Of a DNA stretch of 64,000 bases, positions 18,001 to 24,000 are shown one piece after another (positions within the stretch are counted from its first letter, which is position 1; each line of letters opens with the position of its first letter). Source of the stretch: Octopus vulgaris (taxonomy: Eukaryota); assembly GCA_951406725.2 (NCBI GenBank), contig OX597817.1:16492001-16556000 (forward strand), written 5' to 3'. Made by a program: the position numbers.

Positions 18001-21000
18001 TTTTGTTTTGTGCATCTGCAGATTTCTACCACACACATACATATGTAATTAAAAAAGTTCAAACAGGGAATTATTCCATTCACTATAATGTTTACTATAG
18101 AGATTATGTAACAAATTATGCTTTACACTTCTATATTTAACTGTGCGTGTATACTCCTTACTTTTGTTTCCGGTGTCTTCTGCTCTTCTATTAGAAAGGT
18201 TTACCTGGGAATTTACCATGCACAAAAAGTACAAGTAAAATATAACCCTATGCATGCCTCACCAAAATATCACCATGCCCCACGTTGGGTATCACAGACC
18301 TACACTGAGAGGATCTCTTCTGTTTGGCTGCAGCTGTGGATATTTCAAAGTCTATTGAAAATTTTAAAATCCAGTCAGCCAAGCTGAATCTCAGAAGACA
18401 TTTTACTTTTACCAGAAAAATTTAATAAAACTTATAGAGGTTTGAAGTTTGATAATTGCCACCCAGCCAGAAAACAATATCAGGGACTTGTCATTTTGTG
18501 TGTTATAATATGAAACCAAATAAATCAACTATTCCACATTCAGAAATTCATGACTAAGCAAAACAAAAAAATCTATTTGGTTAATAATTTTACCACATCT
18601 CAACCCGGGATACAAGCAACAGAACATGGTTTCACACAGAATATATTTGCCAACATGTGCTATTTCACAGACAAGAGCTCTCATGCTTGGTCTGTTACTA
18701 TGAAAACAGGTACAAATATGTCTGTGACTCACAACTGGCTGAAACAAACCAATTTGCAAACTTTTTAAGCTATTCTTTGATATATGGTAAAAATTAATTA
18801 GCCAATAAAAACATTACACTGGTTACAAAATCAATTCTAACGAATTGAAAATTGGCAACCAAACAGAAAAAAAATAAATCTAACACAATGATACTCTTCC
18901 AAAGTTTTCCTCATAAGACTGCTAGATATAGCTTACCCTTAACTAAGAATTTCTCCTGCAGTCGTTCCACTAAGATGAAAGCATTAGTGGTATCCAATAC
19001 CAACTCTTCCCAAAGTTGTGCCATAACATCGGTCATATGAGTTAATAAGAAACCTTTACCAGAGAGTCTTCTTTGTTGTAGCCACTGGTTAAACATGCAA
19101 GTGACAAGCAAACATCATAGCATCTGATAGTCCAGCTGCCTTTCCTGTATTTATAACCTTAAACCAAGATCTAGATTCAATAGTTGCTACCTTGCTGGGT
19201 CTACCCGGAGTAGACCTTTCTTTAAAATGCATAATAATCTACATGAAACTGCAGCTTTTGCCACCACAATATCACTGTTGAAAATTTTTAACTTAAGAGG
19301 CAGGCAACCGTAGAAATGATAATTCAGAATGAGATATCAATCTTCACGCAACATATTAGGTGACTATATCATCATCATCGTTTAACGTCCGTTCTCCATG
19401 CTAGCACGGGTTGGACGGTTCGACCGGGGATCTGGGAAGCCAGAAGGCTGCACCAGGCCCAGTCTGAACTGGCAGTGTTTCTACAGCTGGATGCCCTTCC
19501 CAACACCAACCACTCCATGAGTGTAGTGGGTGCTTTTTATGTGCCAGGCGAGGCTGGCAACGGCCACGATTCGGATGGTGCTCTTTACGTGCCACCAGCA
19601 CGGAAGCCAGTCGAGGCGGCGCTGGCAACAGCCACGATTCGGATGGTGCTTTTTACGTACCACCAGACTAGTACAATAGTATAATACAGTATATAATATA
19701 TACATATAGTATAACATAGTAGAATACAAATATGAAGGAAAAACAAAAAGCACAAGACAACCTTAAAAGAGTAGAATTTATTTTGACATATAACACCACA
19801 GTAGTAAATTACTTCTGTTTCTTAGCAGCAGGTTTCTGAGTGCCAGATGCAGATTTAGGTGTAGACTGAGCAGGTTTAGGGGATTGAGCCTGCTTTGCAG
19901 CCGGTTTGGGTGACTTTGCAGCTGGCTGGGCCTGTTTAGCAGGTTGTGCCTGTTTTGTAGCCTGCGCTGGTTTGGGCGACTTTGCAGCTGGCTGAGGTTG
20001 CGTCTGCTTTGCAGCTTGTGCTGGTTTCGGTGTCTTGGCAGCTGGCTGGGCTTGTTTCTGGGGTTGAGTTTGTTTTTGAGCTTGACCCTGCTTTGGAGTT
20101 TGAGCCTGTTTAGGTGCCTTATCCGACTTTGGAGTCTGAGCTTGTTTTTGAGGCTTATCTGACTTAGGTGCCTGAGCCTGTTTTGGAGCTTTATCTGATT
20201 TTGGAGTCTGGGCTTGTTTGGGTGCCTTATCAGTTTTCGGAGTCTGGGCCTGTTTTTGTGCTTTATCTGATTTAGGAGCCTGAGCCTGTTTTGGTGCTTT
20301 GTCTGACTTAGGAGTTTGAGCCTTTGTAGTTTGACCCTGTTTAGCAGGCTGACCCTTTGGTGCTTGACCCTGCTTTGGTGTTTGACCTTGCTTAGGCTGG
20401 GATTGTTTTGCTGCTGGTTTAGCAGTTTGCTGTGGCTGTTTAGTAGCTTTAACAGGCTGTGCTTGTGCTGTCCCTTTGGCAGATTTAGACTGCGCCGGAG
20501 CAGCACCTTTGCCTGATTGTGCCTGTTTAGCTGGTTTAGCTTGCTGCTGTTTGGCAGGTTGAGCCTGTTTAGCTGGCTGTGCACCGGAACCCTTTGCTGG
20601 TTTACCAGGCTGAGATACTTTTGCAGCTTTACCAGGCTGGGAAACCTTTGCAGCTTTTCCCGGTTGGGTCACTTTTGCACCCTTACCCGGCTGCGCTTTA
20701 GTAGGCTGAGATGGCTTTGCAGCCTTAGCCGGTTGAGCCCCCTTTGCAGGCTGTGCTCCTTTTGCAGCCTTAGCCGGTGCACCCTTTGCTACCTTAGCTT
20801 GCTGACCTTTTGCAGGTTGAGCACCCTTTGGTGCTTTGGCAGCCTGAGTTGGCTTAGCAGATTTTGCCTTAATAACCTTTTCAGCTTTAACAGGCTGTGC
20901 CTGCTTTGCACCCTTTCCAGCTGCCTTACCTGGCTGAACTCCTTTGCCAACAACCTTTGGTGGTTTGGTTGCTTTAGCTGGCTGACCCTTAGAGGGTTTG

Positions 21001-24000
21001 GCTGCTCCCTTGGCAGAAACCTTTGGAGCTTCTTTACCAGACTTAGCTTTTTTGGCTGCTACTGCTGCAACTTCCTGTGTAGGTTTAGGTCTCTTAGTTG
21101 GCTGAGCTGGTTTTGTCATACCTTTAGCAGCTTTAGTAAGCTTAGCTGCTGCTTTGACAGCGGGTTTAACAGGCTTAGCTGCACCCTTGGCCGCTCCCTT
21201 AGCACCTTTAGCTGCCTTTCCTGCTCCTGCAGCTGGTTTGCCTTGTTTTGCAACCTTGGCACCCTTTGCTGCTTGAGCTGGCTTGGCAACCTTGGCCATC
21301 TTAGCAGGAGTATGAAGGACTGATTTCTGACCACCACTTTTACTGGCATCTCCTGGGCTCGGCCTTTTCTTAGACTGTGGCTGTTGCTTTTTCTGAATAC
21401 TAGCAACAGTAGCAGCCACTTTAGCAGCATCCTTAGCAAGTGATTCACTCCTACTCTTAGAAATTGATGATTGTTTACGTTCACGGCGCCTCTCTTTATG
21501 TTCTTTCATTCTCAAAGCCAGAAGCTTAGCATAATCTGCAGCTTCTTCACGCTTTCTTGCAAATCTCAATGCCTTCATACTACGAAGATGTCTCCTTCTT
21601 TGTAACACCAATGGTGTCACCAATCGTTGAATCTTCGGAGCTTTAGAGAGTGCACTCTTACCTGAAAATAGAAGAGGGGAAAGAGAGGCAAAAATTTAGA
21701 ATTATTAGCTTAAACCAAGCATCAATTCATTTAAAAAGGCAATTAATGTGTAGCGTATATAAAATTTTCTTACACTATCTGTCAATCATGAACTAGTAAA
21801 TAGCTCGACATATCAAGAGCCAACCAGCAATAATTTTGAAGCCAAGATAAAACTAGTAATAATGATTTAACAGTAATATGAGGAATAAGTCTAGTATAAT
21901 TCACTCAGTGTAAGAAAATTTTGACAGACAGTAATTGCCACACGCTGATTACATAAACACAAGCAGAATACTTACGTTTGCTGCCTTCCTTGAGAGGGAT
22001 TGGTCTACGTACAACATATCTTCGTACATCATCTTCTTTAGAAAGATTGAACAATTTCCTAATTTTACCAGCTCTCTTGGGACCAAGACGACGTGGGATG
22101 GTAATATCAGTAAGACCAGGAATTTCCTGCTCACCTGAAAAAGAAATAAGTCGAATGACCCATCAACAAACACTTGAAAAATGTAAAAGTGAGAAGGAAA
22201 AAAAAAAAGAAAGAAAACCTGGAATACATACCTTTCTTGATAATAATTAAGCTCAAAACACTCAAATTGGCATCAACAATACAGCCACGCACAGACTTCC
22301 TTCGCCTCTCACCTTCTCGTCGGGGACGGTAACAAGAATGTCCCTTAGAGAGTAAAAGGCGGACACGTCCAGCTGTCAGGATACCTTGCTTCATGGGAAA
22401 GCCTTGTTTGTCATTTCCACCCGTAATTCGGAAAACATAGCCCTGTATGCAAATAAATATCAGAAATAAATTTCAGTGGCAACCCAAAATTCAAAATTAA
22501 GCAGCATGTTCACAAAATAGACAATATCTCAAGAAAAATGTAATCAAAGTTAGTTTAGCACCAAATGCAAATTATTTGCCAGTGAAGATGTGCAGTTAAT
22601 TTTATCACAATAACCACACAAAATCATGAACTAGTAAATAGCTTGACATACCAAGCACATAAAAAACCCCATCCGAGCGTGGCTGTTTGCCAGCCTCGTC
22701 TGGCACATAAAAAGCACCCAATACACTCACGGAGTTGGCGTTAGGAAGGGCATCAAGCTGTAGAACCACTGCCAGATCCGACTGGCCTGGTGCAGCCTTC
22801 GGGCTTCCCAGACCCCAGTTGAACCGTCCAACCCATGCTAGCATGGAAAGCGGACGTTAAACGATGATGATGATGATACCAAGAGCCAACCAGCAATAAT
22901 TTTGAAGCAGAGATAAAACTAGTAATAATGATTTAACAGTAACATGAGAAATAAGTTTAGCATAATCCACTCAGTCTAAGACAATTTTGACAGCTAAATT
23001 GAGACAGACAATTCAACTAGAAGACACAAAAAGATATGCTATTGTAGATCTACTTTATTGATAAGAATGTAATGGATAGTCTATTCATTACAAAAATCTT
23101 TGTACTAACACAAGGATCATGTCCAAAACTGCATGTAGCAAACCTATTTAAACAAGAAGAACACACATTCTTTGCTTTCATAGAAATGCATAATTAATTT
23201 ACCCCATCTTTAATTACAACAGTAACTAAGTTTACTGCAGTGGTAAGCATCCAGGGGTTACCTAAAACTCATCTACCAACCACGAAGTAAAACTGTCATC
23301 TTAATATAAAATCTACATAAGAGCTGAAGAGAGAGAGAAAGAAATGATCATGAAAAGTAATGAAACAGCTGTAGCCTGGCTAATACCCAAAATGAGTAAC
23401 TTAACCTTGGCATGATGACACTGCTTAGCATTTCAACCTTCATAAAAGAAATTTCTAATGTAGAGAAAAGCAAAAAAAATTTCCACAACGAAGTATACTC
23501 AATGTTTCACTCCTTTTTCAATATTTCGAAGCATCTTAAAAACAATAAAACAGTATGTGACACACACACAACACTCTACTAAGTAATGCAAACAACTGCC
23601 ACCTCACCTTAAAAAAAGGATGGCATAGATTGAACCCTCTAGTGTTCAGATTAATCTGCCAAATGCAGTGCTTATACATTCATGTTGCTTTGAGTTAATC
23701 ATGCATTATTTCATAGCCTTAAGATTTTGATTGTGTGATTGTTTATTTTTAGAATCACATTGCAGGTAGGGGTGAGAGGCCAAATCTGGCTACATAATAC
23801 TTTGGCTGGATATGGCCAGTTTAAATGCTAAAGAGGTGAGACAAGCCCACAGAAACTTAATATACAAGTGTGGTGAACATTCAAGGGTGTTAGGAGCAAA
23901 TCCTGTCAAGTTGCTCCCCATGAAATGCTTTAATTGATCAAGCTCATGTCAGCAAGACAATTCATGCAAAAGTTGTTCTTTGCAAAATGCTCTGCCTCCT

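Follow-up and report, generated by a model that had tools for sequence, protein, structure and literature searches.

In mosquitoes, the ribosomal protein eS6 (RPS6) ends in a C-terminal extension that is rich in Lys, Ala, and Glu and reaches about 100 amino acids (aa) in Aedes and some 170 aa in Anopheles. This extension is encoded by the last exon, contiguously with the open reading frame (ORF) of the phospho-serines; it evolves faster than the core of the protein, stays on the ribosomal subunits, and is not removed before assembly (PMC548281). The resemblance to histone H1 that first drew attention to these tails was then judged to be convergent, and H1-like tails are also carried, at the N-terminus, by the Drosophila proteins RpL22 and RpL23a (PMC548281). 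A review of the subject covers the mosquito RPS6 tails and no other eS6 extension (PMC11764897). Here, we describe the eS6 gene found in a stretch of 64,000 nucleotides (nt) of the Octopus vulgaris genome (GenBank assembly GCA_951406725.2, contig OX597817.1, positions 16,492,001 to 16,556,000 of the forward strand), which we call the window and within which all positions given below are counted. We consider it probable that this locus is an ordinary, intron-containing eS6 gene whose stop codon lies 543 codons past the usual C-terminus, and that it yields one polypeptide of 786 aa, tail included.

The octopus tail belongs to a known phenomenon, that of lysine-rich tails on ribosomal proteins, eS6 included, and it is by its size that it is striking. 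As in mosquito RPS6, we are dealing with a Lys/Ala-rich, low-complexity C-terminal extension that is encoded wholly by the last exon and is contiguous with the phospho-serines; likewise, it evolves faster than the conventional part of the protein. It differs from the mosquito tails in being 3 to 5 times longer (543 aa vs. roughly 100 and 170 aa, in line with an earlier sequence-only reading of the window, which had called it much longer), in being rich in Gln, Pro, and Gly with just 3 Glu where the mosquito tails are Glu-rich, and in having no detectable similarity to histone H1 at the sequence level. Because the octopus tail is longer, rich in Gln, Pro, and Gly, and hosted by a mollusc, it is likely that it originated independently of the mosquito ones. 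The two cases also differ in that retention on the ribosome has been demonstrated for the mosquito tail and is proposed, by analogy, for the octopus one. As for Drosophila RpL22 and RpL23a, their tails are comparable in being basic low-complexity extensions on otherwise conserved ribosomal proteins, but they are N-terminal, belong to large-subunit proteins, and are much shorter.

An eS6 Gene with a Distant Stop Codon

The gene model was searched at the protein level exon by exon, and the best match in the PDB was an eS6 for every exon searched. Exons 2 and 3 both exceed the 26-bit cut-off of the Pfam family Ribosomal_S6e (PF01092), and the start of exon 5 aligns with about residues 170–245 of eS6 chains from the ribosomes of many species (E-values of 2e-11 and weaker). 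The gene lies on the minus strand, as do all its features listed hereafter, and consists of five exons separated by introns that are all of the GT...AG type; the summed exon lengths of 2361 nt predict a protein of 786 aa plus a stop. By inspection, the coding part of exon 1 amounts to ATG AAG (29855..29860), followed by the donor gtatgt. Exon 2 (29008..29139, 44 codons) and exon 3 (22232..22442, 70 codons and 1 base) match profile positions 3–45 (E = 6.7e-12) and 46–115 (E = 7.4e-33) of Ribosomal_S6e, respectively, and exon 4 (21976..22134; 2 bases, 52 codons, and 1 base) is delimited by its GT/AG boundaries.

Exon 5 (19809..21661), which is the last one, is directly preceded by the acceptor ttctattttcag. 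Its conventional part (21441..21661) encodes the conserved C-terminal helix of eS6 and then the serine cluster in its RxRxxS context, which is a kinase consensus, and closes with SRSES, whose end at position 21441 corresponds to residue 243 (729 nt of coding sequence by exon-by-exon summation). From there on, contiguous with the serine cluster and in the same frame, run 543 codons rich in K, A, Q, and P (19812..21440), with no stop before the TAA at 19809..19811 and with ...PAAKKQK as their end. An AATAAA polyadenylation (poly(A)) signal (19777..19782) starts 27 nt past the last base of the stop codon, which implies a very short 3' untranslated region. The sequence-only reading had already claimed that the last exon runs on past SRSES to give 786 aa ending in PAAKKQK, with an AATAAA 27 nt later, and all of these coordinates were reproduced. 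It had also proposed a TCT/terminal oligopyrimidine (TOP) start, of which the pyrimidine run itself was recovered by inspection: CCTCTTTCTC (29890..29899), 30 nt 5' of the ATG, is a candidate 5'TOP transcription start, and a promoter-like TATAAA element (29924..29929) lies about 25 nt 5' of it. Together, the run, as a putative TOP element, and the upstream TATAAA would fit a TOP-type ribosomal-protein promoter, a function that we infer from the motifs.

A Repetitive Tail under Protein-Level Selection

The composition of the tail is dominated by A (23.9%), K (22.1%), Q (15.5%), and P (13.1%), followed by G (7.4%), S (5.3%), and T (5.2%), whereas aromatic residues, Cys, and Asn are absent. Its charged residues are 120 K, 2 Arg, 3 Glu, and 8 Asp, giving a net charge of +111 that is evenly distributed along the sequence (+8 to +13 per 50 residues), and the spacing between successive lysines peaks at 3 and 6; taken alone, the tail would weigh 54.5 kDa, with an isoelectric point of 11.0. 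Most of the 8 Asp belong to the xPKSDK repeats. The balance of basic residues is also distinct from that of the conventional part (34 R and 28 K vs. 2 R and 120 K in the tail).

With such a composition, it could be argued that the tail is not coding, and that it represents either a T-poor, repetitive 3' region that is open by chance or an assembly or annotation artifact that hides the genuine stop. The strand is indeed T-poor (13.6% T), another sense frame is interrupted by just 4 stops and stays open over 296 aa, and a TAA is found in the +2 frame just past SRSES, such that a 1-nt error could in principle mask a normal end. However, the stop-to-stop listing of the frames between 19500 and 21800 leaves a single minus-strand frame open, from 21695 to 19809, and chance does not account for it: in 2000 dinucleotide-preserving shuffles of the tail, frame 0 contained 20.2 ± 4.0 stops (minimum 8) vs. 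none observed, not one of the 2000 shuffles was stop-free, and open runs reached at most 375 codons, whichever sense frame was considered. The distribution of T across codon positions (4.6% at position 1, 5.0% at position 2, and 31% at position 3) is moreover a coding pattern. This pattern, which is what an AT-biased choice of synonymous codons would yield, also accounts for the mere 4 stops of frame +1; four-fold degenerate sites, for their part, follow one order, T > A > C > G, whether they lie in the core (57 codons) or in the tail (289 codons).

The internal repeats of the tail also go against a non-coding origin. Tandem Repeats Finder (TRF) returned 11 rows in exon 5, with periods of 12, 18, 18, 24, 27, 27, 33, 36, 54, 72, and 108, all 11 of which are divisible by 3. 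Three 9-aa units at 20595..20675 (TRF period 27) differ chiefly at codon position 3, to which 15 of their 19 pairwise nucleotide differences belong. Six 12-aa units of the form (T/A)PK(S/T)DK(A/P)(P/Q)KQAQ at 20100..20315 (TRF periods 36, 72, and 108) are near-identical as protein and strongly diverged as DNA, again mostly at codon position 3 (86 of their 112 pairwise differences, and 11 of the 15 columns that vary), with proportions of synonymous (pS) and non-synonymous (pN) differences of 0.72 and 0.066, hence a pN/pS of 0.09. The tail is in this manner shown to be made up of several families of tandem units, which have diverged at synonymous sites with little change in protein, and it is under selection at the protein level. 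Since the periods are multiples of 3 and the repeats have diverged at synonymous sites, the tail would largely stem from in-frame tandem duplication and would have long been kept as protein. With regard to its origin, one may accordingly picture a stop codon that was moved or lost, after which the tail would have grown by duplications of this kind.

The Same Tail in a Second Octopus

When searched against PDB chains, the exon 5 product aligns across its whole length with chain HH of entry 9EHO (9eho_HH, "Small ribosomal subunit protein eS6," 808 aa; E = 8.5e-298), an entry that holds the cryogenic electron microscopy (cryo-EM) model of the 80S ribosome of Octopus bimaculoides (bioRxiv 10.64898/2026.06.25.734654). 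The other PDB matches of the exon 5 product are ordinary eS6 proteins that align with its first ~75 residues alone (E-values from 1e-11 to 1e-5), and among the eS6 chains in the matches listed (52 to 54 distinct sequences per exon search), the next-longest after octopus has 306 aa. The exon blocks fall on residues 3–46, 47–116, 118–169, and 171–808 of 9eho_HH, and the identity of the core amounts to 43/44 for exon 2, 70/70 for exon 3, 50/52 for exon 4, and 73/73 for the conventional part of exon 5, that is, 236/239 in total.

The two octopus sequences pass from SRSES into the tail at exactly the same point, and their tails have the repeat families and the ...PAAKKQK end in common; a hand count on the printed alignment gives 515 identical residues out of 543 (94.8%), 28 substitutions, and 5 indels of 1, 4, 1, 12, and 4 aa, all in frame, which sum to the 22 aa by which the O. 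bimaculoides chain is longer (808 vs. 786 aa). Two overlapping HMMER domains suggest that the 12-aa indel is one additional repeat unit in 9eho_HH. That five indels should all keep the frame has a naive probability of 0.004, a figure that carries less weight because the repeat units themselves are multiples of 3. Lysine makes up 22% of the tail and 24% of its non-synonymous mutational opportunity, yet it is involved in none of the 28 substitutions (P ~7e-4 judged on the former share and 4e-4 on the latter), and the residues exchanged are A, V, T, S, P, G, and Q. Over its first 47 residues, a non-repetitive linker containing KKRPSPGD (21300..21440), the tail is identical in both sequences, the first mismatch falling, again by hand count, on residue 121 of exon 5 (tail residue 48). 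The three differences in the core point to a species that is close to O. bimaculoides but distinct from it, and some of the differences in the tail may be allelic.

This comparison of two sequences establishes that the long eS6 exists beyond a single assembly, that its reading frame is maintained, and that its lysines are preserved by selection. As this independently deposited sequence retains both the frame and the junction, and as the shuffles and the repeats speak in the same direction, the possibility that the tail is not coding has become hardly credible, and the artifact reading is close to refuted. By contrast, we hold it to be very likely that the tail is a genuinely translated and selected part of the eS6 reading frame. 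In the literature searched, whose relevance was judged partly by title or abstract, no account of a long eS6 in cephalopods was found, and the sequence of the tail is already public through 9EHO, apparently without any description of its role.

A Compositional Likeness to Histone H1

The sequence-only reading had described the tail as histone-H1-like, and it is worth considering what such a likeness would imply, namely that the tail could act mainly outside the ribosome, as a linker-histone-like chromatin module or a nucleolar DNA/RNA-binding module for which eS6 would serve as a carrier. As far as composition is concerned, the description stands: like the C-terminal domain of linker histone H1, the octopus tail is a K/A/P-rich and probably disordered polycation, and it displays 13 S/T-P sites, 11 of which are [ST]PK. 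In addition, the KKRP of its linker resembles a nuclear localization signal.

As for sequence, the description is not supported. The tail alone, searched against 177,635 PDB sequences at E ≤ 10, returned a single match, which is octopus eS6, and no linker histone. Neither the tail nor the whole exon-5 product matched any Pfam family at E ≤ 1, including the globular winged-helix domain of H1 (Linker_histone); likewise, queries of the ESM Atlas with the whole tail and, against named clusters, with tail residues 48–250 gave no usable match. With regard to these searches, it should be borne in mind that phmmer corrects for composition and that the H1 likeness of the mosquito tail was found with BLAST. 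At the level of motifs, S/TPKK-type motifs within a very lysine-rich C-terminal domain are a trait of H1, whose tails differ in composition from the high Gln and moderate lysine density of the octopus tail: here, there is no [ST]PKK and a single [ST]P.[KR], lysine accounts for 22% and Gln for 15.5% of the residues, and the winged-helix domain is lacking. Judging from these comparisons, the octopus tail is not a member of the linker histone H1 family, and the likeness between them is compositional only. The mosquito precedent bears on both sides of the question, since the RPS6 tails first noticed for their H1 likeness are the ones for which this likeness was concluded to be convergent (PMC548281). 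All things considered, a mainly extra-ribosomal role of the octopus tail strikes us as very unlikely.

Fate of the Tail in the Mature Protein

AlphaFold2, applied to the exon-5 product as a single sequence, predicts a long alpha-helix over exon-5 residues 8–91 (21387..21638), for which the means of the predicted local distance difference test (pLDDT) over 10-residue blocks range from 62 to 91, and this helix crosses the serine cluster to extend into the first 18 residues of the tail. No secondary structure is assigned past residue 91, and pLDDT is below 50 in 490 of the 616 exon-5 residues, on which basis the tail is probably intrinsically disordered. A Foldseek search of this model against the PDB gave no match at E ≤ 10, an empty result that is expected from a model consisting of one helix plus disorder.

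Several points weigh against the view that the gene yields one intact polypeptide of 786 aa. Translation of the tail is deduced from DNA and from a deposited sequence, and the call of disorder depends on one single-sequence AlphaFold2 model. Substitutions and indels were counted by hand on a printed alignment, in a region that is repetitive, and an identity of 95% over the tail is in itself weak, as the species compared may be very close. The 808-aa chain of 9EHO is a deposited sequence and no proof that the tail is present in the map or in the particles: deposited chain sequences normally come from a database, and a disordered tail is invisible in a map. The main text of the corresponding preprint reports a conserved general architecture and is silent on an enlarged eS6, the terms eS6, RPS6, extension, tail, 40S, and small subunit having 0 occurrences in it (bioRxiv 10.64898/2026.06.25.734654), a silence that nevertheless says little since a disordered tail would be invisible in the cryo-EM map. 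Lastly, donor-like motifs occur within the tail (CAGGTAAGG at 20929, AAGGTATGA at 21121, CGGGTAAGG at 20686, and AAGGTCAGC at 20806), the best of which, CAGGTAAGG, scores 13/14 vs. 10–12 for the real donors of the eS6 gene, and minor spliced isoforms with a shortened tail could arise from such internal motifs. As a curiosity, exon 5 opens with GTAAGA right after the acceptor AG, and this junction, CAG/GTAAGA, scores as a strong donor motif (13/14).

Some of these points would be accommodated if the tail were translated but then removed, or dispensed with at the RNA level, either by messenger RNA (mRNA) splicing from a donor within exon 5 or by proteolysis in the conserved linker. The eS6 of the 40S subunit would then be of normal size or only slightly longer, and the polycation set free may serve a role of its own. 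The linker, non-repetitive and identical in both octopuses, would suit a processing or targeting site, and an extension removed from a ribosomal protein is exemplified by the ubiquitin part of rat S27a (cited in PMC548281). On the other hand, no acceptor-like site (at least 9 pyrimidines out of 12, then YAG) was found inside exon 5, and the sole downstream one, at 19432, lies in a repeat. No donor-like site was found within 107 codons past SRSES, and since the nearest one is located at that distance, splicing would still leave an extension. The mosquito tail, moreover, is not removed before assembly (PMC548281). In view of this, we regard removal of the octopus tail as unlikely, though it is the alternative to which we give the most room.

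More generally, no route to a normal-sized eS6 was seen at this locus, which has neither an in-frame stop nor an internal poly(A) signal nor a near donor: on the minus strand from 21661 to 19100, no AATAAA or ATTAAA occurs besides the signal at 19782, and local blastn and tblastn searches revealed no second eS6 copy and no further copy of the tail within the 64-kb window. A separate start at the ATG of tail residue 48, which lies in a good context, was considered and rejected, because this residue is Ile in the O. bimaculoides chain and also because, with no upstream stop, translation of eS6 would read through it anyway.

A Putative Polycationic Arm on the 40S Subunit

If the intact 786-aa eS6 is indeed what the gene produces, the mosquito analogy gives the tail an even or slightly better chance of remaining on the 40S subunit. 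In ribosome structures, the C-terminus of eS6 faces the solvent close to the foot of this subunit, and a tail leaving the end of the C-terminal helix would there form a flexible polycationic arm, which could bind or neutralize RNA, be it the expansion segments of ribosomal RNA (rRNA), mRNA, or neighboring ribosomes. Selection would target evenly spread positive charge rather than the exact sequence; in this regard, the observation that lysines are under selection while the exact sequence is not fits a charge-based, non-stereospecific function. As to whether the full tail is both kept on mature ribosomes and acting through RNA binding, our analysis leaves the odds evenly balanced.

eS6 is a classic target of signaling on the ribosome, and its C-terminus normally lies ~10 residues past the phospho-serines. 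In the octopus protein, the serine cluster is internal and is followed by a tail of about twice the mass of eS6. With the cluster positioned at the hinge between helix and tail, one may speculate that phosphorylation could modulate how the tail is held.

A stronger claim would be that every octopus 40S subunit bears a covalent, disordered polycation of 54 kDa and about +110 that measurably changes the behavior of the ribosome, which we consider distinctly improbable. Octopus ribosomes are reported to translate ~30% slower, independently of the H88 rRNA break (bioRxiv 10.64898/2026.06.25.734654), and the arm would become a candidate cause of this slower translation. It could also underlie the clustering, transport, or storage of ribosomes through RNA in the very large octopus nervous system, and it would constitute a second, protein-based, lineage-specific innovation of the octopus ribosome beside the rRNA break. 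Should the tail be present on mature ribosomes, this eS6 would be by far the longest among the matches listed (786–808 vs. 306 aa) and would offer a natural test case for the role of lysine-rich tails of ribosomal proteins, a question that has been open since their description in mosquitoes. The material for such a test exists, as octopus ribosomes have been purified and both cryo-EM maps and an in vitro translation system are available (bioRxiv 10.64898/2026.06.25.734654).

Introns and Surroundings of the Gene

Two blocks of 189 nt, at 24190–24385 and 28170–28358 on the minus strand, lie within intron 2 of the eS6 gene; they are 95.8% identical, have sharp edges and unrelated flanks, and recur nowhere else in the window. 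Both overlap H/ACA matches in Rfam that are below threshold (SNORA27 with 27.9 bits and E = 0.13; SNORA26 with 24.6 bits and E = 0.71), and copy A does not fold clearly better than its shuffles (z = -1.8). This pair is possibly a duplicated intronic H/ACA small nucleolar RNA (snoRNA). The intronic snoRNA candidates of the sequence-only reading are therefore matched by two H/ACA-like hits, neither of which reaches its Rfam gathering score, and at gathering thresholds Rfam gave no match over the whole window.

Intron 2, which is 6.5 kb long, also contains, in the orientation of the gene, a decayed reverse-transcriptase ORF (25209–26432, minus strand; Pfam RVT_1, E = 2.9e-26), which is a retrotransposon fragment; a further RVT_1 fragment lies at 37125–37706 on the minus strand (E = 8.1e-21). 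A dispersed repeat is found at 19364–19684, 22605–22860, 39230–39724, and 41781–42353, in several orientations, such that one copy begins ~100 nt 3' of the eS6 poly(A) signal and another sits in intron 2. The translations of its copies share ...GVWEARRLHQAQSDLA.FL.LDALPNANHS.SVVGAFYVP..., and the repeat bearing GVWEARRLHQAQSDLA is probably a short interspersed element (SINE)-like element, on which no transfer RNA (tRNA)-like head was seen, ARAGORN finding no tRNA gene. Another two segments, 23930–24131 on the plus strand, within intron 2, and 30517–30737 on the minus strand, upstream of the promoter, have similar translations (...ARQFMQKLFFAKCSASLSSLHFTTAANN.FYPVQLPHHHSYSLMT.QF...) in opposite orientations, which indicates an inverted repeat pair flanking exons 1 and 2.

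Farther from the gene, an unbroken frame of 206 aa on the plus strand (10701–11318) contains an Mpv17/PMP22 domain (Pfam PF04117, E = 1.5e-17, residues 134–195) and, judging from this match, is probably an exon of a neighboring gene for a peroxisomal or mitochondrial membrane protein. At 59677–60181, a perfect minisatellite repeats a 42-nt unit 12.0 times at 100% identity, and it is for this reason alone that several frames are open there.

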